Source of the DNA: an uncultured virus (IMG/VR IMGVR_UViG_3300036770_002758) | Taxonomy: Duplodnaviria; Heunggongvirae; Uroviricota; Caudoviricetes | Reading direction: 5' to 3' (one strand) | Length of the DNA stretch: 20,000 bases | Virus record (IMG/VR): IMGVR_UViG_3300036770_002758 | Shown: in pieces, positions 1,743 through 18,682 of the stretch | Layout of the letters: every line of letters begins with the position of its first letter | Position numbering within the stretch: the stretch's first letter is position 1 | The notes under the pieces: generated by a model | What the model saw: only the letters and a program-made list of their open reading frames with translations | Database searches by the model: none | What the model was told of the DNA's origin: nothing | Translations under genes and position numbers: made by a program

Positions 1743-2516
1743 ATGCGCATAATGGTCATACCAGACTGCCATGTCAAGCCAGACGTACCGATAGACCATC
1801 TTGGCTGGGCAGGCCAGTACGCAGTAGAGAAGAAGCCAGATGTCATTGTGAACATTGGTGACTTCTGGGACATGCCCTCATTGAGCAGTTACGACAAGGG
1901 CAAGAGGAGCTTTGAGGGACGTAGGTACACAAAGGACATTGAGGCAGGCATTGAGGCCATGTCGGTCTTCATGGAGCCAATCAAGGAAGAACAGTTCAGG
2001 CTGAAGCGCAACAAAGAAAAACAATGGAATCCTCGTTTGATATACACAATGGGGAACCATGAGAACAGGATCAACAGGGCCATTGAGGACGATGCCAAGC
2101 TGGAAGGTCTGATTAGCTTTGATGACCTGCTGCTTGACCAATTCGGCTATGAAGTATATGATTTCTTGGAAGTGGTCACAATCGAAGGTGTAGCATTCAG
2201 TCACTACTTTGCATCGGGTGTCATGGGTCGTCCTGTCACTTCGGCTAGGGCAATCCTGACCAAGATGCACATGAGTGCCGTACAGGGCCACGTTCAGGAT
2301 AGGGACATCGCCTATGCCAAACGGGCAGATGGCAAGATGATGACAGCCATCTTTGCAGGTATCTTCTACCAGCACGATGAGGACTACCTGGGCCGTCAAG
2401 GCAACAATAGCTGGCGTGGCCTGTGGATGCTGAATGACGTTAAGGATGGCAGCTTTGATGAGATGCCAGTATCTTTGGAATATCTGAGGAAGAAATATGA
2501 CCGGAACAGCAAATGA
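1743..2516 (+). CDS. Calcineurin-like metallophosphoesterase
   Basis: Motifs PDCH, GDFWD, GNHE, SH and GHVQ. SD GAGGT at 1734-1738 favours ATG 1743 over GTG 1737. Confidence 0.9.
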   Translation: MRIMVIPDCHVKPDVPIDHLGWAGQYAVEKKPDVIVNIGDFWDMPSLSSYDKGKRSFEGRRYTKDIEAGIEAMSVFMEPIKEEQFRLKRNKEKQWNPRLIYTMGNHENRINRAIEDDAKLEGLISFDDLLLDQFGYEVYDFLEVVTIEGVAFSHYFASGVMGRPVTSARAILTKMHMSAVQGHVQDRDIAYAKRADGKMMTAIFAGIFYQHDEDYLGRQGNNSWRGLWMLNDVKDGSFDEMPVSLEYLRKKYDRNSK

Positions 2517-2838
2517 GTGGGATGATCTGACGTTGACGACACAGTTGAACAAGTGCCTTAACTGGACTGGCCCTGCCAGCAAAGCCAGCAAGGAAGCAGC
2601 AGAGCGTCTCCTGCCCCGCTTTGACAATGTGGACAAACCTGCACACTACAATGCAGGAGGCATTGAGGCCATCGACTACATCAAGCAGCAGTTGGGACAC
2701 GAAGGCTTCATTGCATACTGTGAAGGCAACGTCATCAAGTACGGCCATCGCTGGCGTTATAAGAATGGCGTTGAAGACCTGCGTAAGAAGCGTTGGTATC
2801 TGGAGCGGATGATCGAAGAGGTCAGTAAGGGCAAATAG
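2497..2838 (+). CDS. DUF3310 family protein (T7 gp1.7 nucleotide kinase-like domain)
   Basis: DNVDKPAHY..GGIEAIDYI...GNVIKY..RW..KNGVEDL.K..WYL signature. Confidence 0.85.
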   Translation: MTGTANEWDDLTLTTQLNKCLNWTGPASKASKEAAERLLPRFDNVDKPAHYNAGGIEAIDYIKQQLGHEGFIAYCEGNVIKYGHRWRYKNGVEDLRKKRWYLERMIEEVSKGK

Positions 2839-2845
2839 CCTACAC

Positions 2846-2869
2846 AAAAAGAAGCCCTCCGAAGAGGGC
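2846..2869 (-). terminator. Intrinsic terminator for the - strand structural arm
   Basis: On the - strand, GCCCTC-TTCG-GAGGGC (6-bp stem, C(UUCG)G tetraloop) is followed by TTCTTTTT, downstream of the stop at 2919. Confidence 0.9.
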
Positions 2870-2892
2870 CACATAACAACGAAGAATCTTAC

Positions 2893-2916
2893 GGCCCCTA
2901 ATGGGGCCTTTTTGTT
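2893..2916 (+). terminator. Intrinsic terminator for the + strand replication arm
   Basis: GGCCCC-TAAT-GGGGCC followed by TTTTTGTT, downstream of the stop at 2838. Confidence 0.9.
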
Positions 2917-2918
2917 GG

Positions 2919-5663
2919 TTACGGTTTTGGAGTCCTTTCTGCCGTTTCGGCACCTTGAGTAGCCAAAGATGCTTTACTAAGAACCGAAGCAGCCATCACT
3001 TCGGACACACGTTTAGCCGCCTCATTGATGTCTATCTTGTTCTCCCGTTGCAGCCTTGCAGTATCAGCAATACGCTTCAGGCCTTCAGGATTCAATAGCA
3101 AGTCCATCATCTCCTGATCTCTGCGGCCTGCTGTGCGCATAGTGAACCAACGAGAGAAAAGGATAGATGCCTTATGTGCACCGCTGGATATACGGTCACG
3201 CATAAGAGAACCAAGTTGTGGTGCAGATGTGCCAGTGCTTTTTGCTAAGGCATCGGCCTCTTTGAACGAAGTGGCAAAAGCCATCTTGTCCGGATCAATC
3301 CTTCTAAGCATGTCGTTGGCGTAAGACAGGGCCTGAAGGGACTCAGTGTAAGTACTACCAAACCATTCATTAAACAAGGTAGCATTCTGGTTAATGAAGT
3401 CCCTAGCCGAAGGAGTGCTGAAAGCCTTATTGATAAGAGCAGACCGGATACCTTGTCGAACCGTCCTGGCACTTTCAGGATCAAGATTACGGACAGTTCT
3501 GGAGTATTGATCCAGTTTCATCGGACTAGAAATCATGTCATTGATGGCACTATTAACCCCACGCTCATGAACAGCCCTGAGAATGTTGTTTGCTTGGTCC
3601 TCTGCGTACTGATTGTACTGAGAATCTAAACGTGACTTCACAGCATCCATTCTGGCTACTGTGCCTCCAATGTTGCTCAGTTCGGCACGCAGCCCAGGAA
3701 CAGTGTCCAACAGTGTCTTGTTTTCAGCAAGGAACTTGGCATAGTTGGCAGGCTTGAAATTGCCTTCAGTGTCAAAGGCAGTACGGCGAAGACGCATCAA
3801 GATTGCATCCTTGACGACAGGAATACCCTGATCGCCAACAAAACTAAGGAAGTCACGCGCCCGTTCTGGCTTTGCCAGATAGTTTCCTACAGTCTCAGTA
3901 AACTTCAGGGAGTCCAACTGGCTAAGACCAGCAGCATCGAAAGGGATGCCCAGCTTTTGATAGAATGACCTGTCAGTGGCACGGTAGGCGTCACCAAAGC
4001 CAGGCATCTTGTCTATCTCGGCTGTGAGTGCCTCTTTCATCTGACGAAGCAGAGGGTAACTTGTTTGTCCGTATGAGTTTCTAAGCGCCTTGTTGAGTTC
4101 TTGTTTGAGGCTGTCCAATTGCTCCAACGAAAGATCACGGAACTGTGTAGTCTCTGGTGTACGCACAGGACCAGTGCGGCCACCAAGCATAGCCCCTAAA
4201 GACGGCATGGCCTCAGTGGCAGGGACAACCTGTGGCCTAAGAAGCTGGTTTACTTTGCCTACCAGACTGGGGAACGGGGTGAACAGTTGAGCATCCAAGG
4301 CACCACTGACAAGATTCCACAGATTCCCAACACTGTCTTTAGGGAATACCATCCCTTGTGCAGTATAGTCCTTGATGAGTTTTTCATATTGGATATTCAT
4401 CTCTTGCTTAACTGCGGCTTCCTTGGCATCAATAAGCCTACGGGCAGCAGTACCTACCTGAATAGGCTCTGCCTCAGTACGGGCAGCAGTAAGCACACGG
4501 TCAATACCTTGGTCAATCTGATCTCTGCGGCGAACAGCATTATCCAGATTGATGCCATAGTTGTCCCTAGCGTTTACCAAGTTCCTTCTGATTTCGTCAG
4601 GGTCAGTAGTGCCAAAAAGTCTATCCCTCCTCAGAAGGATAGCATTGCCTACGTCCTTCAAATTGGCCTCTACACCTGCCCTAAACTTGGGAGATTCTTT
4701 CAGCAAAGTCTCCATGTTCTTACGCACAATGGCATTGTCGTAAAGGGCAATACCAGGCGCTACTTCAAAGTTAGGGATCAACTCTGACATGACACGCAGG
4801 GTGTTAATGTGTTGGTCAATGTTAGGCTCAGTCGTGACAATATCGTCAATGACTGTTTTCATATTGGACGTTACAAGGAAATCAGAAGCCTTGTCGAGAC
4901 TGTCTTGAATGCCCTTTTGCTGACGAACAACATTACGGGCCTGAGCAACAGATTCAAGACCACCACCTACCAAGCCAGCAGATGTGCCAGAGATAAGACC
5001 TGCAACGGTGCCTCCTATTTGTCCCCATGTCTGCTGCCATTCAGGGGACGCACCAAGCGCTTCAGCAGTGGCTGACAGCGCATCATAGCCGACAGCACCG
5101 CCCATAGCTGCCGTGCCTGACCCAGCTAAGTTAAGGCCAACACCAAGAACACCACGGCCCCCTAATACGGACATAACTGGATCAGCAGCAATGCTACCTA
5201 AAGCAATACCCCCGTAACGCTGTAAGTTGTTTTCAGGCATTCTGTTTCCGCTACCAAACCAGGTAGCAGCTTTGTCCTGTATTGCCTGCCTGCGTAATGC
5301 CTCATACTCAGCATCAGCCTGTCTGACTTCTTCAGGGGTTACACCAGATCGGATAACGTCAGTAGGGGCGTCAATGCCAAACACCTCATCGGCTACTGTC
5401 TGATTGGCATTAGACAAGGCTCTATAGATAAAATCAGTAAAGTTAGTTTTTGCTGTATCAGCCCAGAAGTTAGTATTGGCCGGATCGGCAGCAGTGGTCA
5501 ACGGGCTTGTTTGAGTAGCTGTTCCCATTGATTTGTAAGCAGCCGACAACTTTACGGCTTCAGATTGCAATCTGGTCCTTTCGCTGTCCGAGATAGTCGG
5601 ATCGGCTTTTTTGGCCTCAATAGCTCTGAGAGCCGATTCTATTTGTTCTTTTGTGACAGCCAT
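2919..5663 (-). CDS. Large internal virion / DNA ejection protein (914 aa; positional equivalent of T7 gp16)
   Basis: Long Ala/Leu-rich, helical-looking ORF with a Gly-rich hydrophobic region. It is the last of three ORFs after the tail tube genes and has a TAATG overlap with the upstream gene. Function is inferred from position. Confidence 0.6.
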   Translation of the reverse strand: MAVTKEQIESALRAIEAKKADPTISDSERTRLQSEAVKLSAAYKSMGTATQTSPLTTAADPANTNFWADTAKTNFTDFIYRALSNANQTVADEVFGIDAPTDVIRSGVTPEEVRQADAEYEALRRQAIQDKAATWFGSGNRMPENNLQRYGGIALGSIAADPVMSVLGGRGVLGVGLNLAGSGTAAMGGAVGYDALSATAEALGASPEWQQTWGQIGGTVAGLISGTSAGLVGGGLESVAQARNVVRQQKGIQDSLDKASDFLVTSNMKTVIDDIVTTEPNIDQHINTLRVMSELIPNFEVAPGIALYDNAIVRKNMETLLKESPKFRAGVEANLKDVGNAILLRRDRLFGTTDPDEIRRNLVNARDNYGINLDNAVRRRDQIDQGIDRVLTAARTEAEPIQVGTAARRLIDAKEAAVKQEMNIQYEKLIKDYTAQGMVFPKDSVGNLWNLVSGALDAQLFTPFPSLVGKVNQLLRPQVVPATEAMPSLGAMLGGRTGPVRTPETTQFRDLSLEQLDSLKQELNKALRNSYGQTSYPLLRQMKEALTAEIDKMPGFGDAYRATDRSFYQKLGIPFDAAGLSQLDSLKFTETVGNYLAKPERARDFLSFVGDQGIPVVKDAILMRLRRTAFDTEGNFKPANYAKFLAENKTLLDTVPGLRAELSNIGGTVARMDAVKSRLDSQYNQYAEDQANNILRAVHERGVNSAINDMISSPMKLDQYSRTVRNLDPESARTVRQGIRSALINKAFSTPSARDFINQNATLFNEWFGSTYTESLQALSYANDMLRRIDPDKMAFATSFKEADALAKSTGTSAPQLGSLMRDRISSGAHKASILFSRWFTMRTAGRRDQEMMDLLLNPEGLKRIADTARLQRENKIDINEAAKRVSEVMAASVLSKASLATQGAETAERTPKP

Positions 5664-9347: not shown

Positions 9348-9997
9348 TACACCTGTCTCCAAGTCAACTCAGCCTGATAACGACTGGCTTCGAGGCCAAT
9401 GGCATCTGCCAGTGCCCTATCGGCAAGACTGAATATCTCCTGAGCAGCCATGCCACCAGTCTCGCCACGCTCACGGGTAGCCATTGCCCATGCGTACAGG
9501 ACAATAGGCTGAATGGGCAGGATGGTCGTATCGGAAGCATTCTCCAGTTCGTCTTCACGCACCACCAGATCAAACTGGAGTGTGTAGGAGCCGTCAGGGA
9601 CAGGGTAGACCGTGATGGCCTGATCGCCATTGCTGTCAATCACACCAAGGCTGAACTCATAGGGACTACCCTGTGCTGCACTGTTAAGCACAGATCGGGT
9701 GTTCATCTCGTTCTGAGTAATCAGCTTCATCCTGGTACGGCTAGTGGCATTGATGGCATCAAGGAACTTGTAGTTATGTCCTACGCCAGTCAGGGTCCAC
9801 GTAGCGTCACCAACAGTGGCCGATACGGTCTTTGTGGTACGCAGGTTTGACCAGTCCCATGAATCTTCAACGAGCTTCTTGGCATCGTTAACCATCATGC
9901 CCACAAGCTGCACATATTCGCTGTCGATAGGCGTCAAAGCCTCTGTCTCACGAAGCCTGATAAGGACTTTGTTGATAAGGTTAAGATAGGTAGCCAT
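9347..9997 (-). CDS. Tail tubular protein A / head-tail adaptor (216 aa)
   Basis: TYLNLINKVLIRLRE, VNDAK..VEDSWDW..L and VYPVPDGSYTL are typical of podovirus adaptor proteins. Lies upstream of the nozzle gene. Confidence 0.75.
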   Translation of the reverse strand: MATYLNLINKVLIRLRETEALTPIDSEYVQLVGMMVNDAKKLVEDSWDWSNLRTTKTVSATVGDATWTLTGVGHNYKFLDAINATSRTRMKLITQNEMNTRSVLNSAAQGSPYEFSLGVIDSNGDQAITVYPVPDGSYTLQFDLVVREDELENASDTTILPIQPIVLYAWAMATRERGETGGMAAQEIFSLADRALADAIGLEASRYQAELTWRQV

Positions 9998-12078
9998 TAG
10001 CTAAACATGCCTCTCGGAATATAAGACAGCCGATCATTTATTATCGTAAAGTCCTTTCTGAGTCTAAACAGCTCAGGAAAGAGCAATTCCGATGTTGAAG
10101 GAGAGCCAAATAGCATTCCATCACGGCCTGCTCTACCTCTTTCTCCTTGAAGTCCTTGTGGTCCTTGTGCTCCAGTAGCGCCAGTGGCTCCTGTAGCACC
10201 AGTTTCGCCACGTTCACCACGTTCGCCTTGTGCGCCAGTAGCCCCAGTCGCACCAACGAAACCTCTTTCACCTTGTATACCCTGTGGACCTGCTGGTCCC
10301 ATAGGGCCTACTGGTCCCATAGGGCCTACTGCGCCAGTTTCGCCACGTTCACCACGTTCGCCTTGTGCCCCAGTAGCCCCAGTTTCGCCACGTTCACCAC
10401 GTTCGCCTTGTGCGCCAGTAGCCCCAGTAGCCCCAGTGGCTCCAGTAGCCCCAGTGGCTCCAGTGGCTCCATCTCGGCCATCAATGCCATCTCGGCCATC
10501 AATGCCATCGCGGCCACTAGCTCCAGTAGCGCCCGTAGCACCATCTCGGCCATCAATGCCATCTCGGCCATCAATGCCGTTGGTTCCATTGGTTCCATTG
10601 GTTCCGTTGGTTCCATTGGTTCCGTTGGTTCCGTTGGTTCCGTTGGTTCCGTTGGTTCCGTTGGTTCCGTTGGTTCCATTGGTTCCGTTGGTTCCATTGG
10701 TTCCGTTGGTTCCATTGGTTCCGTTGGTTCCGTTGGTTCCGTTGGTTCCATTGGTTCCGTTGGTTCCATTGGTTCCGTTGGTTCCGTTGGTTCCATTGGT
10801 TCCGTTGGTTCCATTGGTTCCGTTGGTTCCATTGGTTCCGTTGGTTACAGTAGTATTGGTGTTTTGTGCGTTTCTAAGACTTTCTTCTACTTCGCGTACC
10901 AAGTTAATAGGAGCACCAGCGTCAGCAGCGGCTTGATCTTTTTGTTCTTGCGTAGCATTAGGAAAACGAATTAGCCACTCTCGAATAATTGTACGCCAAT
11001 CATCATCTGTAGTAACAGGTCTTTGTGTTGTGGTTTGCGTTGTTTCAGTAGTCTGAGTAGTGCCACTAGGTATGCCTTTATCAGAACCAAGAACACTAAT
11101 TTGCTGACCTTCTTGATACGTATTGTTAGTTGCATTTTCATACTCTTCAATCAAAGCAGGGTTGGTGTTTTGTGCAGTCCATATAACTGCACCAGACACA
11201 GGATTTTTACCTTGATGCCTCCATACAATTCCTTGGTCATCTGTCACCAAATCTCCAAGTTTGTAAGTATCAGTAACACCTCCTGATCCCATGTCTCCTG
11301 CATCCAATCCACCACCAGTATTGAGGTCAGAATCGCCTCCAAGAAGATCAGAATCAGGCTCAAGAGAAGCAGGAAAACGAGCAGCAACAGTCTCTTCAAC
11401 AATGTCGTCAGGAACACCAAATTGTGCTGCTACCTGACGCATCTCTTCCTCAGTAGCATCAGGATTGTTTCTTATCCATACATTGATGGGAATGGTCCAG
11501 TCTCTAGGTTTCCATGTTTCTTGTGTTACAGTTTCATTAACATCGCCGCCTGTAGCCCCCCCACCATTAGGCGCTCCACCACCAGCAGCACTAGGACTAC
11601 CGCCACCGCCGCCCACTGCAGGCTTAGGTACAGGGACCAGCGGAGGAGTCACAAGGATAGGTGTGTTACCGCTAAGAACATAGTAGCCATAGTCATTAGG
11701 ATCGTTGGTATTACGGTAGTAGCCCATATCGTCCTGTACATACCCAGGAGAAGAAGGGGCCTCTACAGCACTACGCTCACGGCTGGAACCGTCAGGCATC
11801 GTAGGATTGTTCCTGAGCCACTCATCCAGAAGAGCATCGGCCTGTTCCTGAGTACCCCACGGCACATCACGCATAAAACCACCAAGAGTCTTACCAAGAA
11901 TACTGGTAAACAGACCCATACCAATACCAGAGGCAATGTTGCCTAAAGTGCCTCCAAACAAACCAGCCTCTGCACCACCAGTAGGGATAACAATAGGACT
12001 GGTAGCCATACCGCCAGCACTGGTCAGTAGCGGATTACCAGTAACGGGATCGGTGAGGATTTGTGTTCCGTATGACAT
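9997..12078 (-). CDS. Collagen-like repeat protein (693 aa), probably virion-associated
   Basis: 80 consecutive Gly-X-Y triplets at 10120-10839. TAATG overlaps at both ends. Confidence 0.85.
10160..10581. repeat. Imperfect collagen-coding repeats ([21 protein letters not shown] blocks)
   Basis: Three copies of ccagtttcgccacgttcaccacgttcgccttgtgc and repeated ccatctcggccatcaatg units. Confidence 0.9.
10582..10842. repeat. 9-bp tandem repeat (GGTTCCRTT)x29 encoding (Asn-Gly-Thr)n
   Basis: 261 bp of contiguous units that vary only at the synonymous Asn position (AAT/AAC on the - strand). Confidence 0.97.
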
Positions 12079-12296
12079 TAGCGGTTCTCACACAGATTGG
12101 CAATAAGCTCAGGGGTCAATTCGGTCCCTTCAGGCACTTTGACACCACGGCCATTGGCCCTGCTGTCCGTAAAGTAACCATCTACTTCTACGTCAACACA
12201 GCCAGCATCAAGGCCAGTCAGGACAGTATCGACAGTAGAGCAACCAGAACAACCTACAAGGGCAAAGATACCTACAAACACAATAATCTTGTTCAT
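12078..12296 (-). CDS. Small lipoprotein (72 aa), possible o-spanin or exclusion lipoprotein
   Basis: ATG 12296 overlaps the upstream [19 protein letters not shown] is a signal peptide II with lipobox LVGC. The specific function is inference. Confidence 0.7.
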
Positions 12297-12667
12297 TTGA
12301 ACCATCCTGTAATTGTCTGATACACACGCACAGCACGGTACATAACACGGCGCTGTGACCATCTAACGCCAAGGACTTCCATTGCTTCCAGAAAGACCCT
12401 ATCGGCATCTGCCTGTGAAATACCTAGTTCCTTACCGTAGACACAGAGGAAGTCATGGACCACTGCGGCTGCTCTGTGCTTACCATTGACCTGACAGAAA
12501 CTATGGAACACCCAAGGTATGCTGGCAAAGTCAGTAGAAAAACCAGGAGGAACTACAAGCTCTTTCTGCAAGAAAGCACTGAAGTACACAAGAGGCCGAA
12601 CAAGAGTAAACACTGCCTTCTGGTCAGCTACTTCAACAATCAACTTTGTCTTAAACTCACTTACCAT
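12293..12667 (-). CDS. DUF1353 family protein
   Basis: VPPGFSTDFASIP...AAAVVHDFL...ADADRVFLEAM...MYRAVR signature. Confidence 0.85.
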   Translation of the reverse strand: MVSEFKTKLIVEVADQKAVFTLVRPLVYFSAFLQKELVVPPGFSTDFASIPWVFHSFCQVNGKHRAAAVVHDFLCVYGKELGISQADADRVFLEAMEVLGVRWSQRRVMYRAVRVYQTITGWFK

Positions 12668-14084: not shown

Positions 14085-15944
14085 TCACCAAGACGTTACA
14101 CGGCAATAACCATTGCCGCCTGCGCCGCCTGCGCCCGAGTCATAGCCATTGGTTGAAGCGCCGCCACCGCCGCCCCCGGCAGCAATGCCGCCTGCACCCC
14201 CAGCACCGGCTGCGGATGTATTGCCCCAGCCACCGCCACCGCCACCAGTCCCTGAAATACGGCCAGTGAGCGCCGGACTTGTTCCTGATCCTCCGGTAGT
14301 ACCTTGAGTAGTCCCAGCAGCGCCACCGCCGCCTGTCCGGGTAGAATCGGAAAGAGTCCCGCCTGCTGCACCTGGTACAGTTGTGTTGCCGCTTGTAATA
14401 CTGCCACCGCCACCACCGCCCGGTCCGCCATTGACAGAACAGCCACCTTGACCAGCAATGATTCCGTTTGCATCAGGGCGATGGCTCCCGCCAGAAGCGC
14501 CGCCATCCTCAGATTTGAAACCATCACTGAAAGAAGCACCGGAAACAGCAAATGCCCCATATTCACCAACGCCCCCATAGACAGAAAACAGGTTGCTGCT
14601 TGTAGAACTTACAGGGATGGTAAATCCATCATTTATTCCGCCGCCATGACCACCTTCTCCCGAACTGGTAGATCCTTGGTTTCCTGCGTTTCCACCGCGA
14701 GCAGTTACCAACGAACCAAAAGTAGTATTGCCTCCATTAGTGCCGTTTGCTCCGTTTTGATCGTTCGTTGTTCTCGCCGCGCCCCCACTTCCACCAGCGC
14801 CGATAGTAATTGTTTCTGTCGATCCAACATCGGATGCCTTAAACAGGCGTGTCGTTTTACCGCCACCACCGCCACCACCGCCGCCAAATCTGGCACTACT
14901 TGCAGCCCCTCTGCGTCCAGAACCACCACCGCCACCACCGCCCCAACATTCAACCATGACAAAGGTCGCGCCTGCTGGTTTCGTCCATGTTCCACCAGAC
15001 GAAAACGTCTGCACATCGACTCCGGCGGGACCGGCGGCAGATGTCCACGTTGTTCCATTTGATGTTAGCACGTTGCCGCTGGTACCCGGTGCTACAAGCT
15101 GAACTGCGCTTGTGCCGTTGCCAAGGATTACGTTGTTGGCAGTAAGCGTTGTCGCTCCGGTGCCGCCGTTGGTAACAGGAAGAGCACCAGTGACGCCGTT
15201 AGTTAAATTAACAAAATCCCAAGAAGCTGCTGTTCCATCTGTTTTTACATACTTATTAGCGTTTCCTGTTTGAGCAGGAAGTGCCGTGTTAAAAGCTACT
15301 GTTTGTACAAAAGCAGTAGTTGCTAATTGAGTAGTATTAGTACCAACAGAAGCTGTAGGAGCTGTTGGTGAGCCAGAAAAACTAGGAGAATCTGAAAAAA
15401 CTAAAAAGCCAGTACCTGTTTCATCAGTTATAGCACTACGTAAGTTGTCACTTGAAGGTGTACCAAGAAAGGAGTCAATGCCAGTGCCAAAAGAAGTGAT
15501 ACCAGTACCACCATTGGCAACAGGCAAAATATCACTGACGCCCGTGGTCAAAGAAAGGTCAGTGCAGTTTGAAAGATTACCAGACGCAGGAGTACCCAAT
15601 GCAGGAGTAACAAACGTAGGACTAGTAGCAAACACAAGAGCGCCAGTGCCTGTCTCGTCCGTAATGGCAGCAGCCAAATTGGCACTTGAAGGAGTAGCAA
15701 GAAAGGCAGCTACGTTGCTGCCAAGGCCACTAATTCCTGTGGATACAGGCAGGCCAGTACAATTGGTCAGGGTTCCAGACGAAGGAGTACCCAGTACGCC
15801 ATTGCTGTCTACTTTAGAACTAATAGCCGCAGCAATGTTGGTAAATTCTGTGGAAAACTCGGTGCCTTTAATAACCTTTGCAGGGTTACCAGTTGCAAGG
15901 GTATCCTTAGCTCCGAAGTTGGTAGTTACGGTGTAATTGCTCAA
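14085..15944 (-). CDS. Tail fibre protein with glycine-rich C-terminal domain (619 aa)
   Basis: TTG start with SD GGAG. N-terminal anchor-like MSNYT..TNF..KDTL..GNPAKVIKGTEF, shaft repeats (TPSS.NL..AITDETGTG.LVF..SP; LPV.NGGTG), and a C-terminal TF.SGGTWTKP...GGGGGGG...GGNGYCRVTSW domain. Confidence 0.8.
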   Translation of the reverse strand: MSNYTVTTNFGAKDTLATGNPAKVIKGTEFSTEFTNIAAAISSKVDSNGVLGTPSSGTLTNCTGLPVSTGISGLGSNVAAFLATPSSANLAAAITDETGTGALVFATSPTFVTPALGTPASGNLSNCTDLSLTTGVSDILPVANGGTGITSFGTGIDSFLGTPSSDNLRSAITDETGTGFLVFSDSPSFSGSPTAPTASVGTNTTQLATTAFVQTVAFNTALPAQTGNANKYVKTDGTAASWDFVNLTNGVTGALPVTNGGTGATTLTANNVILGNGTSAVQLVAPGTSGNVLTSNGTTWTSAAGPAGVDVQTFSSGGTWTKPAGATFVMVECWGGGGGGGSGRRGAASSARFGGGGGGGGGKTTRLFKASDVGSTETITIGAGGSGGAARTTNDQNGANGTNGGNTTFGSLVTARGGNAGNQGSTSSGEGGHGGGINDGFTIPVSSTSSNLFSVYGGVGEYGAFAVSGASFSDGFKSEDGGASGGSHRPDANGIIAGQGGCSVNGGPGGGGGGSITSGNTTVPGAAGGTLSDSTRTGGGGAAGTTQGTTGGSGTSPALTGRISGTGGGGGGWGNTSAAGAGGAGGIAAGGGGGGASTNGYDSGAGGAGGNGYCRVTSW

Positions 15945-15962
15945 GGTAGGCTCCGAAGTGTT

Positions 15963-15995
15963 AAAGAACTCCCCCAGCCGGTTAGGCCAGGGGAG
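15963..15995 (-). terminator. Intrinsic terminator downstream of the capsid gene
   Basis: On the - strand, CTCCCCTGGCC-TAACC-GGCTGGGGGAG (11-bp stem with two G-U pairs) is followed by TTCTTT, 12 nt after the capsid stop. Confidence 0.75.
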
Positions 15996-16007
15996 GTATT
16001 ACGGCTC

Positions 16008-16891
16008 TTAGTTGTTTACAACCAGAACAAAGCCGCTGTCCGGACGGTAGGTCTTAACACCGTACAGGGTATCAGCGGTATACAGGTTAGCCAGATATTC
16101 CTGCTTGTACTGAGTCTGGCTACGGACACCCACCTGCTCGGCCAAGATGAACGAGTCGCGGTGGAGCAACAGTGCTGCACGAAGGTCTTTGCTGTTACCT
16201 ACTGCGCTGTTGTTAGCAGCAGTTTCGACAACAGGGCTGTTGCTGGAGACAAAGATGTCGATACCGTACAGCTCACCGATCTTGCCTTTCTCAACACGGC
16301 CACCACCATTCATGAAGTCCGAAGACACATAACGGTCGATGCCCATGATGGCATTACGCAGCGAGGGCGGAATGACAAACACACGGCGATCCATCGGTAC
16401 GTCAGCATCGTCCATCTTCTGAATCAAAGCACGGAAGCCAGCATCGGTAAAGACATCAGTGTCGATCACGGTGTCTTCTGCATACAGGGTGAGGCCAGTG
16501 GAAACATCAATGTAGAAAGAAGCACTGTGAGTCCAGTCGTTCGTGCCATCGCCCAGCGTCTGACCCAGCGTCCACAGGTCGTTGTCTACCTGGGTTGCCA
16601 GTGCATAGCCAGCATCGCTGGTGTAGAACTGACGCAGGCTGTCCAGAGCCTGTACGGACACGATGTCCTCAATCAGACGGCTGTATTCAAAGTGACGGTT
16701 GATGATAACCTGCACTTCGGATTCAGTGTTGTTCTGAAGGGTGACAGCGGTGTTTTCCGTTTTGGCATATGCCTGACCACGGATCGGGGCAGGAATATGA
16801 ATCGTGTCACCTTTCTTGCCCTTCATGGACAGCTTTTTGACAAGGTTGGCAAGGACGAGGTTCTTCTCGTAACTTGCCCGGATTTCATCAG
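16008..16891 (-). CDS. Major capsid protein, exon 2 (spliced CDS: 17895-17817 joined to 16891-16008; 320 aa)
   Basis: GKKGDTIHIP, YALATQVD, MDDADVPMDRRVFVIPP, G.IGELYGIDIFVSSN and DTLYGVKTYRP are podovirus coat motifs. The frame continues upstream of the track start (DEIRASYEKNLVLANLV) to the intron 3' end. Confidence 0.9.
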
Positions 16892-17816
16892 CGAGGCTCC
16901 GTGGGCCTTCCGACTATAGCTTTCCCCGCAGGGATAATCTCACTTAGTCTGTGCAAGTCCTTAAAGACTGTTATGGTACGCCAGTAGTTGCTCAATCTTG
17001 TGTTTTTTGAGCTTGCTGTGTTGTACCATCTTGGTAAGGAACATTACTGCAAACGAACTATACGTTTTGGATAAAGAATGTCTCCAATCCAAAATGTGTT
17101 TCTTGCCTACTCCCCTATCGGTAATATATCCACCGAAAGCCTTGTGGAGAAGATCAAGAGCTACTCTATCGTTTTCGTGCGCTGTTGCTTGTATAAGCAA
17201 TTTAGGACCTTTGTGTGACGGCGGGTGGCTGTATATGTAGCTACCGTCCCCATCAAGGTATCCTGCTGTCCATGCCCAAGAAGGATGTTTCTTAGGCTTT
17301 ACTGGACCCGCATCGGCCCTAGAGGCTTTGCTGAACGCACGTAGTTGTTCCTTATCAAGATCACTGAGTTTTTTACCTTTGTACTTTTTACACATCGCCA
17401 ACATCCTGTCAAAGTGCTTGCCTTTAATGACTAGATGTTTAATCAAGCGGGGAAGTAACATCTCCACATCGGAAGTTTTACTAACCGCCCAGACTGTTAT
17501 AGGTGCCCAAGTTTCGGTTCGTTGGCTTTTTGTGTGACTAGAGCCGTAGCCGGTAGACTCGGGGAGTCCTAAAACATATTCATGTTTGTCTATGGATGTG
17601 GCTGCGCTTATTCTCATTGATAATGTTAGTCTGTCTCCAGTAAATTCAAAAGACAAACAACCATCAGCGTCAATAAGTCCAGCAAGGTACTTCACTTCTG
17701 TTTCAGTGATCGTCTTCATCAATCCGCCTATTGTGTTTGGATTGTCTAGGTTCTTTCGTGTTGCCTAGCTATCTAGGTGTCCACGTTATTCAGAGATTAG
17801 GTGGCCTTAGATCAAA
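16892..17816 (-). mobile_element. Group I self-splicing intron (925 nt) carrying a LAGLIDADG homing endonuclease gene
   Basis: The 5' exon ends in U paired to G in P1 (GUGGU/GCCAC) and the intron ends in G. Pairings seen: P3 UAAUCUC/GAGAUUA, P4 CGUG/CACG, P5 CCUAG/CUAGG, P6 AAG-CCU/AGG-CUU, P7 GACUA/UAGUC, P8 UCCC/GGGA, P9 AGGC/GCCU. R-like GCACAGACUA and S-like AAGCUAUAGUC elements are present. Removing the intron restores the capsid frame. Confidence 0.93.
16961..17719 (-). CDS. Intron-encoded double-motif LAGLIDADG homing endonuclease (252 aa)
   Basis: Two motifs, KYLAGLIDADGC and AWTAGYLDGDGS. Basic protein. ATG 17719 (or TTG 17722) follows SD-like AGGCGG. The ORF is visibly more AT-rich than the flanking capsid exons. 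Confidence 0.93.
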   Translation of the reverse strand: MKTITETEVKYLAGLIDADGCLSFEFTGDRLTLSMRISAATSIDKHEYVLGLPESTGYGSSHTKSQRTETWAPITVWAVSKTSDVEMLLPRLIKHLVIKGKHFDRMLAMCKKYKGKKLSDLDKEQLRAFSKASRADAGPVKPKKHPSWAWTAGYLDGDGSYIYSHPPSHKGPKLLIQATAHENDRVALDLLHKAFGGYITDRGVGKKHILDWRHSLSKTYSSFAVMFLTKMVQHSKLKKHKIEQLLAYHNSL

Positions 17817-17895
17817 ACCACAGTTCAGGAACGAAGGTGCCAACATCGGACAGACCGACTGCGCCGGTCATAGTGGGGTAAGTTGAAGTAGCCAT
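17817..17895 (-). CDS. Major capsid protein, exon 1 (MATSTYPTMTGAVGLSDVGTFVPELW plus the first base of Ser)
   Basis: SD AGGAGA at 17906-17901 and ATG 17895, directly after the scaffold stop. Ends in the coat-protein motif FVPELW. Absent from the ORF track because it is short. Confidence 0.9.
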
Positions 17896-17908
17896 TACAA
17901 TCTCCTAG

Positions 17909-18682
17909 TTAAATGACCCTTCCTTCTGCATAGGCATTCCGGATTTCACCGGCCAATGCTGCATAGCGGTCAGGGTCTTCTCGCATGAGTTTAATAATAT
18001 CAGCCCTGCGATACTTCTTCTTCGACTGAGGAACCTGAGCAGAGGTGTTGCCACCTGTGGCTGCTTGTTTTACAGTTGCCTTCCTGGCGGTAGTCTCACT
18101 GGAGACTGTCTGTTGAACAAGCTGCTGACGCTCTTTCCATGTTGAAAACAACTCATCGGCTGCATCAACGTCATACTGCTGGTCAGCTTGTACAAGTAGG
18201 CTTTGACGGACCTTAGAGGCTTTGACCCATTCCAGAAACTTCTCATCCTGAATGATCTGATCGACATCCGGGTGTCTGCGTTTCATCTCGGCCTGTGCCG
18301 TTGCCTGCTTCTGTTGAAGAGTTAGAGTCTTCAGTTCCTTGAAGGCAGGATGGCTCTCTACGGTCTGCGCTACTGCTGCTTTTGGATCAGCGAAGAAGTC
18401 AATTTCTTCAGGCTGTTTCTTGGTCTCGACAAGTTCTGTCTGCTTAGTGATGAAATCATCGACTACTTTACGCAACTCGCCTACTTCATTGGCATGGCGT
18501 CCTAGTGCCTTCTCGGCCTCTTGGTGCATCCTTACAATGTCTACAAGGCTTTTGTTGCGGTACTTATCTGGAAGTCCATCGGGTTCAGGGTTGTCCGGTT
18601 CGGGGGCCTGTTCCTCTGTTGCCAGCTTTTCAAGTGCTTCGATTTCGTTTTCAAGCATACGCTTGTCAATTATTTCTGCCAT
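17909..18682 (-). CDS. Capsid scaffolding protein (257 aa)
   Basis: LPDKYRNKS...IVRMHQEAEK.LGRH.NEVGELRK and a C-terminal DII.LM..DPDRY......I..AYAEGRV. Acidic and helical, directly upstream of the capsid gene. SD GGAG. Confidence 0.8.
   Translation of the reverse strand: MAEIIDKRMLENEIEALEKLATEEQAPEPDNPEPDGLPDKYRNKSLVDIVRMHQEAEKALGRHANEVGELRKVVDDFITKQTELVETKKQPEEIDFFADPKAAVAQTVESHPAFKELKTLTLQQKQATAQAEMKRRHPDVDQIIQDEKFLEWVKASKVRQSLLVQADQQYDVDAADELFSTWKERQQLVQQTVSSETTARKATVKQAATGGNTSAQVPQSKKKYRRADIIKLMREDPDRYAALAGEIRNAYAEGRVI

Follow-up and report, generated by a model that had tools for sequence, protein, structure and literature searches.

The interrupted capsid gene

The stretch of DNA considered here (hereafter the window, 20,000 nucleotides (nt) in full) comes from an uncultured tailed virus of the Caudoviricetes, IMG/VR record IMGVR_UViG_3300036770_002758, and represents a phage structural module. 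On its minus strand, between a scaffold-like gene upstream and tail-fibre-like and collagen-like genes downstream, lies a capsid gene in three parts: exon 1 (17895-17817), an insert of 925 nt (17816-16892) and exon 2 (16891-16008). Exon 1 opens on an ATG at 17895-17893 with AGGAG 7 nt upstream, spans 26 codons and ends in ...GAA CTG TGG T, where the last T, at 17817, is the first base of a serine codon. Without splicing, the frame continues as TTT TGA and is closed after 27 codons. Exon 2 starts with CT GAT GAA ATC at 16891 and so supplies the CT of the serine codon, followed by 293 codons and a stop at 16010-16008. Joined, the exons (79 + 884 = 963 nt) encode 320 amino acids by script translation; the predicted spliced junction is GAACTGTGGT followed directly by CTGATGAAATC, with the predicted junction peptide ...FVPELWSDEIR. 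The base 5' of the insert is T and the final base of the insert (16892) is G. These boundaries, the 963-nt frame of 320 residues, the stop after 27 codons and the group I rule of a U before the intron and a G at its end had all been proposed in an earlier reading of the letters (hereafter the sequence-only reading), and were exact when every coordinate was re-derived by script.

The identity of the host gene follows from exon 2, which matches the major head protein family phrog_267 over residues 2-293 (3e-43). Relatives of the capsid protein carry the Joint Genome Institute name 'N4-gp56 family major capsid protein' as well as the domains PF19821, PF25209 and PF05065; the match of exon 2 to the Pfam family P22_CoatProtein lies below threshold (19.6 against a cutoff of 24). 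A profile match to the whole protein and a position in the head module together identify an HK97-fold major capsid protein of the phrog_267 / N4-gp56 family, and the interrupted gene is the only recognisable major capsid gene of the window within this tailed-phage structural module. The three elements by which the sequence-only reading had described the locus have held up, namely a major head gene (phrog_267, 3e-43), a group I core, here with covariation, and a reading frame with two LAGLIDADG motifs. It is very probable that the capsid gene is interrupted in the serine codon of PE(L/I)W-S-DEI by a 925-nt group I-type intron carrying a LAGLIDADG gene, and that splicing yields a protein of 320 amino acids.

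Position of the junction and intron-less alleles

The exact position of the junction is carried by comparison with capsid proteins. A search with exon 2 matched at least 8000 proteins, and the best 120 clusters were examined. Among these, 117 are 309-325 amino acids long and possess the N-terminal 48 residues; the other three, which comprise the window's own database protein (P0002) and those of two relatives (P0005, P0034), are 270-272 amino acids long and start at an internal methionine, which is exactly what a gene caller yields from an interrupted gene. The nearest intron-less homologues (P0003 and P0004, 87% identity) have 320 residues, the same as the joined product. The peptide encoded by exon 1 is identical at 26 of 26 positions to the N-terminus of the homologue P0001 and 77-92% identical to those of other aligned homologues; relative to the related locus L117, exon 1 has changed at 14 codons, nine of them synonymously (counted by eye).

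Together, the two exons cover full-length homologues leaving a single residue between them, and this residue is serine in all ten that were aligned. All ten read contiguously as ...FVPE(L/I/W)W-S-DE(I/V)R..., so that alignment to intron-less capsid homologues, a check put forward with the sequence-only reading, bears it out with W-S-D-E-I unbroken; likewise, of 80 related capsid loci found on viral contigs, none is interrupted at the junction. The join of T to CT was chosen since it is the only one to restore serine together with a U before the insert and a terminal G. Two other joins were rejected for want of the serine and for breaking the U...G rule: TGG with GCT encodes alanine and puts G at the end of the exon and C at that of the intron, and TGGTT with T encodes phenylalanine, again with C as the last intron base.

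Among close relatives of the capsid gene the intron may be present or absent, and its absence is seen directly in DNA. In a lake-water run from another study (X5), a DNA contig of 572 nt passes from 16889 to 17818 with three letters in between, which gives W-S-D with AGC as the serine codon; pieces of the intron, 151 nt long and 96-100% identical, occur in that run as well. Intron-plus and intron-less alleles thus both occur as DNA, and the insert fills exactly the proposed interval. X5 contains two more joints (16118 to 16389 and 16634 to 16843, with sides of 20-24 letters and low likeness), which probably reflect relatives or repeats and were set aside. In two runs, which may be the source sample, the stretch in question is covered end to end, with 0 differences, by single contigs (5966 and 6025 nt). 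Contig depth is 97-142x in the four runs with the sequence, and as all four consist of contigs, neither depth nor uncovered parts carry weight. An identical 14-kb fragment (G001) is not independent.

Mobility of the intron is supported indirectly, by its presence or absence among relatives, by the intron-less DNA allele and by a copy lacking the open reading frame (ORF) at the same site in L117. The serine codon itself may influence where the element can go. Among the 79 scorable intron-less alleles (L002-L081), 63 use AGT or AGC and 16 use TCT or TCA, and intron-bearing alleles must use TCN, with T as the last exon base. As the intron needs this T, alleles with AGY could be poor homing targets, and the split in serine codons may mark resistant alleles.

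Architecture and covariation of the intron RNA

The intron (16892-17816, minus strand, bounded by the homologue alignment and the intron-less DNA allele) has 166 nt outside its ORF, and its core lacks P2, comprising P1 and P3-P9. P1 (17801-17821), as drawn by minimum free energy (MFE) folding, pairs GUGGU of the exon (17821-17817) and UUU of the intron (17816-17814) with AAG-GCCAC (17808-17801) around the loop GAUCU; within this helix of 8 base pairs the splice-site U17817 faces G17805 in the U·G pair expected of group I introns. The guide sequence varies with the exon at the same site, giving a G-C pair in the window, U-A or U·G in L083, L085, L086, L089, L093 and L094, and C-G in L117. Downstream lie the 5' strand of P3 (AAUCUC, 17793-17798), which pairs with GAGAUU at 16936-16941, and P4 (17757-17785), in which CGUG (17785-17782) pairs with CACG (17760-17757), as seen in both fold and alignment. 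P4 encloses P5 (CCUAG, 17777-17773, with CUAGG, 17768-17764), which is recovered by folding. In P6, the 5' strand AAG (17755-17753) is matched by 16957-16955, and CCU of the extension (17750-17748) by 16961-16959; these pairs close around the ORF, which therefore sits in the loop of P6. The pair U17748-A16961 is read in the window only and stands outside the covariation count.

Ahead of the ORF, folding places a hairpin (17720-17744) of CAAUCC and GGAUUG with a purine-rich loop of 13 nt, and similar hairpins can be made out by eye in relatives; it probably sequesters the ribosome-binding region of the ORF, and so may have a regulatory role. Beyond the ORF follow the 3' strand of P6 (CUU, 16957-16955), the joining segment J6/7 (GCA) and the 5' strand of P7 (C, a bulged A, then GACU, 16951-16946), which together occupy 16946-16957, and then the 3' strand of P3 already given. 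P8 (16923-16934) is formed by UCCC and GGGA capped by the tetraloop UGCG, the cap among relatives being UGCG or UACG, and the 3' strand of P7 (AGUCG) lies at 16911-16915. The P9 region, a GGC...GCC hairpin, and the terminal G at 16892 complete the intron (16892-16910); P9 is drawn from the fold and stands outside the formal covariation count, and its sequence and length differ among relatives, with the hairpin visible by eye. The terminal G expected of the class (omega-G) is present in both the window (16892) and its counterpart in L117 (position 2318). The interlocking of P3 and P7 creates a pseudoknot, which together with P3-P8 and P4-P6 domains makes up the arrangement of a group I core.

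Relatives were compared because Rfam is blank in 15500-18500. To either side of the ORF, their flanks have a block in common, one 5' and one 3', with a spacing of 34 nt between the two strands of P7 in most loci. The alignment (A3) contains 56 distinct full introns, that of the window (as record L082) and those of 55 viral loci; 22 of 78 loci were excluded, 12 as duplicates or near-duplicates, six for large inserts in P8 and four as truncated. Across the 24 pairs of P3, P4, P6 with its extension, P7 and P8, 99.6% of the 1344 cells are paired, compared with 69.3% when columns are shuffled, and none of 500 shuffles reaches the observed value. Changes on both sides are found in 21 of the 24 pairs; the other three are invariant. 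By helix, both-sided changes affect six of six pairs in P3 (helix 1, with 99.1% of cells paired), three of four in P4 (helix 2), all five counted pairs in P6 (helix 3, 100% of cells, across some 890 alignment columns), three of five in P7 (helix 4, 100% of cells, two pairs invariant) and four of four in P8 (helix 5, 100% of cells). The invariant pairs include the G-C pair of P7 in columns 1105-1153 (56 of 56 introns), beside an unpaired bulge in column 1104; by analogy with its class, this pair would bind guanosine. A first version of the structure, in which 95.5% of cells paired, was revised by adding the P6 extension and dropping one pair, a fifth in P8 (columns 1120-1143), which was unpaired in 52 of 56 introns. 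MFE folds of the two halves of the window's intron recover P1, P4, P5, the pre-ORF hairpin, P7 and P8.

Smaller relatives and the limits of detection

At its widest, the family includes introns with no ORF at all. L117 carries, in the same codon as the window, an ORF-less intron of 165 nt (L117:2154-2318), in which a short hairpin replaces the ORF and the final 69 nt are identical to those of the window by visual comparison alone; some 28 codons further on, after KGKKGD, the same capsid gene bears a second, LAGLIDADG-bearing intron of the same family. A scan by regular expression found 11 ORF-less introns with the same core in seven loci (L096, L098, L100, L104, L117, L135 and L146), each sharing its capsid gene with one LAGLIDADG-bearing copy, and by the same scan L098 (~140-1790) and L104 (~2400-4090) have four introns per capsid gene, one with LAGLIDADG and three ORF-less. 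Against Rfam, the intron of L117 matched only Intron_gpI, at 15.4 bits (E 0.086), over the full span of the model and with the same assignment of helices; ORF-less introns of L104 matched it at 18.4 and 15.0 bits, as the best and only catalytic intron, with a weaker, chance-level match to a small RNA (sRNA; E 2.6).

Several results weigh against the assignment. Rfam gave no match in 15500-18500 of the window even at E <= 1, nor did any LAGLIDADG-bearing intron of 20 related loci reach the gathering score, which for RF00028 (Intron_gpI) is 50 bits; the ORF-less relatives fall far below it. The search with group I covariance models that was proposed with the sequence-only reading thus returned nothing above threshold, neither for the window nor for its L117 twin (15.4 against 50 bits). 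Sliding the partners by 1-3 columns lowers pairing to 31-43%, a control that is partly circular because the structure was drawn from the same sequences. Folding energies do not stand out from those of shuffled sequences: z is -2.1 in the 5' half of the intron, +0.58 in its 3' half and -0.30 in the ORF-less twin. A predictor found a P1 with a U·G pair beside P3 in 52 of 56 introns, and in only 14 of these 52 did none of 20 shuffles do as well; because the family-wide predictor is too permissive relative to shuffles, P1 rests mainly on a few comparisons at the same site. The core is small, without P2 or peripheral elements, and may need protein in order to splice. Finally, six runs were found with the stretch, none recorded as RNA and hence silent on expression, so that splicing is inferred from DNA.

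The predictor also places the splice site of the window one U too far, since P1 continues across the junction; the site was fixed by reading frame and homology rather than by the predictor. By architecture, then, the element is a group I intron, and one that fails the operational threshold of Rfam.

Other matches to Rfam were made in the neighbourhood of these introns. Those of L103 to RF00028 were rejected as instances of the window's type, belonging to a different, ORF-less kind of intron further downstream. They lie at L103:3819-4047 (93.7 bits) and 4143-4363 (64.2 bits); since the capsid gene concerned also bears a LAGLIDADG intron like that of the window, two types of group I core occur in one gene. 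On the minus strand of L098, also a viral contig, positions 2752-2825 match the sRNA suhB/mmgR at gathering level (59.3 bits).

The LAGLIDADG reading frame

The ORF within the intron (16961-17719, minus strand) runs from an ATG at 17719 to a TAA and encodes 252 amino acids. It matches Pfam LAGLIDADG_1 above threshold (31.9 bits against a cutoff of 23.1; 2.6e-7) and has the two motifs of the monomeric homing endonucleases, LAGLIDADG at residues 12-20 and AGYLDGDG at 152-159, with both acidic residues in place. G14, D17, D19, G153, Y154, D156, G157 and G159 are invariant in 36 aligned relatives. The nearest solved structure by sequence is that of I-MsoI (3fd2_A, 2e-8, residues 3-114). The protein collection contains 449 homologues at E <= 0.001, most with a precomputed PF00961 assignment, and the PHROGs cluster that contains the family is labelled 'HNH endonuclease'.

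In the window the ORF stops just before the 3' strand of P6; in many relatives the frame runs on through that strand, P7, the 3' strand of P3, P8 and the 3' strand of P7, and stops right after it. In eight loci (L107, L118, L122, L127, L130, L132, L144 and L149) the two strands of P7 are 71-137 nt apart instead of 34, and the inserts in P8 responsible are in frame with the LAGLIDADG ORF and have a Cys/His-rich look; they may encode an extra small domain. In part of the family (L098, L100, L103, L104, L108, L109, L114, L135 and L153; A3 columns 785-796) the second motif reads DGNG rather than DGDG. With an acidic residue lost, such variants may be nickases or proteins acting only as maturases.

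A family confined to capsid genes

Relatives of the intron were found in at least 205 stretches of viral contigs, by a search from an alignment of 36 LAGLIDADG homologues, and 78 loci were kept. After a pilot scan in which nine of nine flanking ORFs were major head genes, those of 61 LAGLIDADG loci were matched to PHROGs: 51 match the major-head families phrog_267 or phrog_3437, none another function, and ten had no match, these being short or wrong-frame ORFs picked by the script. Going by the 5' exons, there are a dozen or more different insertion sites, spread over at least two capsid families, and one gene may carry as many as four copies. The family is apparently undescribed and found only in phage capsid genes; no earlier account of this capsid-restricted family or of its minimal core was found in the literature, with most subscription journals outside the coverage.

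Only one cultured phage with a close relative of the intron was found, Pseudomonas phage HHBS10_2 (L160, PQ287653.1, region 4517-5460), in which the only match to the capsid family is interrupted by a member of the same intron family, the join being predicted to follow ...GAGAGT. In its record the intron ORF is annotated as 'HNH endonuclease', the capsid gene is unannotated and a hypothetical coding sequence on the minus strand covers exon 2. Imaging shows HHBS10_2 to be a podovirus, and lysis tests have been carried out with it, in a paper whose accessible text mentions no intron (PMC12141865). That a viable phage has the same arrangement suggests that such introns are removed in vivo.

Comparison with known systems

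Introns in capsid genes have precedents. Mycobacteriophage LittleE has a spliced intron with an I-CreI-like LAGLIDADG ORF in its capsid gene, and a capsid-gene intron of Tuc2009 is mentioned in the same report (Pope et al. 2013, PMC3706429). As in the window, the interrupted gene encodes the major capsid protein of a tailed phage, the intron follows a U and ends in G, the ORF is of LAGLIDADG type and related phages lack the intron. In LittleE, splicing was demonstrated by reverse transcription PCR and N-terminal sequencing. The two differ in that the ORF of LittleE has 177 residues, an HNH-like C-terminus and the opposite orientation, whereas that of the window has 252 residues, two motifs and the same strand as its host gene, inside P6; and in that the LittleE intron is 'most likely group I' according to its authors, while the core in the window is defined by covariation. 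A search for DNA similarity between 15900-18000 of the window and 50,697 phage records found no match. In crAss-like phages, the Delta and Zeta groups have group I introns in their major capsid protein (MCP) genes (Yutin et al. 2021, PMC7886860). Here too endonuclease-bearing group I introns split the MCP gene, sometimes several per gene, and are known only from metagenome assemblies; unlike the window, these phages belong to another lineage with another capsid family, and their introns were detected through protein domains.

The sequence-only reading had set out from the premise that the endonucleases of phage introns are seldom of the LAGLIDADG kind, and this stands, since most are GIY-YIG, HNH, PD-(D/E)xK or EDxHD enzymes (PMC3984707). 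The novelty it implied for a LAGLIDADG enzyme in a capsid gene was overstated, given LittleE, Tuc2009 and the crAss-like phages (PMC3706429, PMC7886860). Elsewhere, one LAGLIDADG ORF is reported among 45 introns of Bastillevirinae (PMC11878797), and the intron of the N4-like phage pVa5 lies in its td gene rather than its capsid gene (PMC5746245). At the level of the single locus, the arrangement seems rare but documented, and what seems new is the capsid-restricted family and its minimal core.

The classical phage introns (those of T4 td, nrdB and nrdD, of the DNA polymerase genes of SPO1 and Bastillevirinae, and of Twort) resemble that of the window in their U...G boundaries, an essential and conserved host gene, an endonuclease in a peripheral loop and an early in-frame stop; they differ in being detected by RF00028, which the window's intron is not at the gathering score. 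Classical phage group I cores are also larger, with P2 and/or P7.1/P7.2, and the Azoarcus tRNA intron, the usual 'smallest' group I intron, has about 205 nt. I-CreI and I-MsoI are encoded inside group I introns, as is the ORF of the window, but in organellar rRNA rather than a phage capsid gene. Both are homodimers with a single motif, whereas the LAGLIDADG protein of the window combines both motifs in a single polypeptide and would thus be active as a monomer.

Proposed mechanism and alternative explanations

In the favoured explanation, the capsid pre-mRNA would fold into a compact core without P2 (P1 and P3-P9, about 166 nt outside the ORF), in which a G in the internal guide sequence is the partner of the last exon U. 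A guanosine held at the invariant G-C pair of P7 would then attack the 5' splice site, after which the terminal G of the intron would take its place and the exons would join, TGG T to CT GAT, to encode the capsid protein of 320 amino acids. On unspliced RNA, ribosomes would meet a stop two codons into the intron (TTT TGA). The ORF product, if it behaves like other LAGLIDADG enzymes encoded in introns, would cleave capsid alleles that lack the intron at the site of insertion, thereby driving homing.

A variant of this explanation is possible, if somewhat doubtful, in which the architecture is that of a group I intron and splicing is not autonomous, the core of about 166 nt needing its own LAGLIDADG protein as a maturase or an RNA chaperone of the host. 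It would account for a small core without P2 and for the unremarkable stability of the folds; it would also suit the 11 ORF-less copies in seven loci that share their capsid genes with one LAGLIDADG copy, and the DGNG second motif in part of the family (e.g. L098), as if the nuclease were dispensable. Set against these are small group I introns, such as the Azoarcus tRNA intron of some 205 nt, that splice alone, and the LAGLIDADG motifs of the window, which keep their acidic residues as active nucleases do. More speculative, and rather unlikely, is a broader proposal: that these introns form an undescribed minimal group I lineage, without P2 and with a core of about 165 nt, specialised on phage MCP genes, in the boldest form of which the LAGLIDADG protein would be both homing enzyme and a maturase shared with ORF-less siblings.

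It is very unlikely that an endonuclease gene, dead or free-standing, was inserted here and broke the gene, leaving either a capsid protein that starts at Met 16826 (272 amino acids) or a pseudogene. Gene callers do give exactly this 272-residue product (P0002 in the window, and P0005 and P0034 in relatives), and none of the runs with the stretch is on record as RNA. A broken gene would, however, hardly have kept an exon 1 conserved as protein, with mostly synonymous changes relative to L117, nor a Shine-Dalgarno sequence before that exon when nothing like AGGAG precedes Met 16826. The insert ends precisely within one codon and has a covarying ribozyme core; 117 of the 120 best listed homologue clusters retain the N-terminal 48 residues; the sequence is present in four runs at 97-142x (a contig depth, which carries no weight by itself); and HHBS10_2 is viable with the same arrangement.

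Nothing specific speaks for any other kind of element, and an intein (the frame is closed by TGA two codons past the junction rather than staying open), a group II intron (no Rfam match in the region, no reverse transcriptase and a core of group I type), a translational bypass (known bypasses are far shorter than 925 nt) or an assembly chimera (contigs of 5966 and 6025 nt have 0 differences, pieces of the intron occur at 96-100% identity in independent lake runs, and G001 contains the identical stretch) can hardly be credited.

Other features of the structural module

Two neighbouring features of the structural module deserve brief mention. A collagen-repeat protein of 693 amino acids (9997-12078, minus strand) has many matches to tail-fibre PHROGs, the best to phrog_6320 (2.4e-70). 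Overlapping ORFs at 12078-12667 on the minus strand, one at 12293-12667 resembling a tail-assembly chaperone (phrog_1158) and the other at 12078-12362, have a layout reminiscent of a chaperone pair joined by programmed frameshift.

Implications for capsid genes and their introns

If splicing proceeds as proposed, what is expected to be the most abundant protein of the virion could be made only after RNA splicing, and because the capsid needs this step, gene callers report a truncated protein of 272 residues or none at all. With a family that is common yet invisible to Rfam at threshold, the consequence is systematic mis-annotation of capsid genes in viromes, where the MCP is a widely used marker. 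The covarying core of 165-166 nt is a candidate for a minimal group I ribozyme and, should it splice, would be smaller than the Azoarcus intron of about 205 nt; in relatives whose LAGLIDADG frame extends through the 3' helices, it offers a natural example of coding sequence superimposed on the core of a catalytic RNA. A single lineage of endonuclease and intron, restricted to capsid genes and established at many sites within them, is also a good system in which to study the switching of target sites. If the LAGLIDADG protein were indeed a shared maturase, capsid production, and thus the timing of the burst, would be gated by a protein encoded within an intron.

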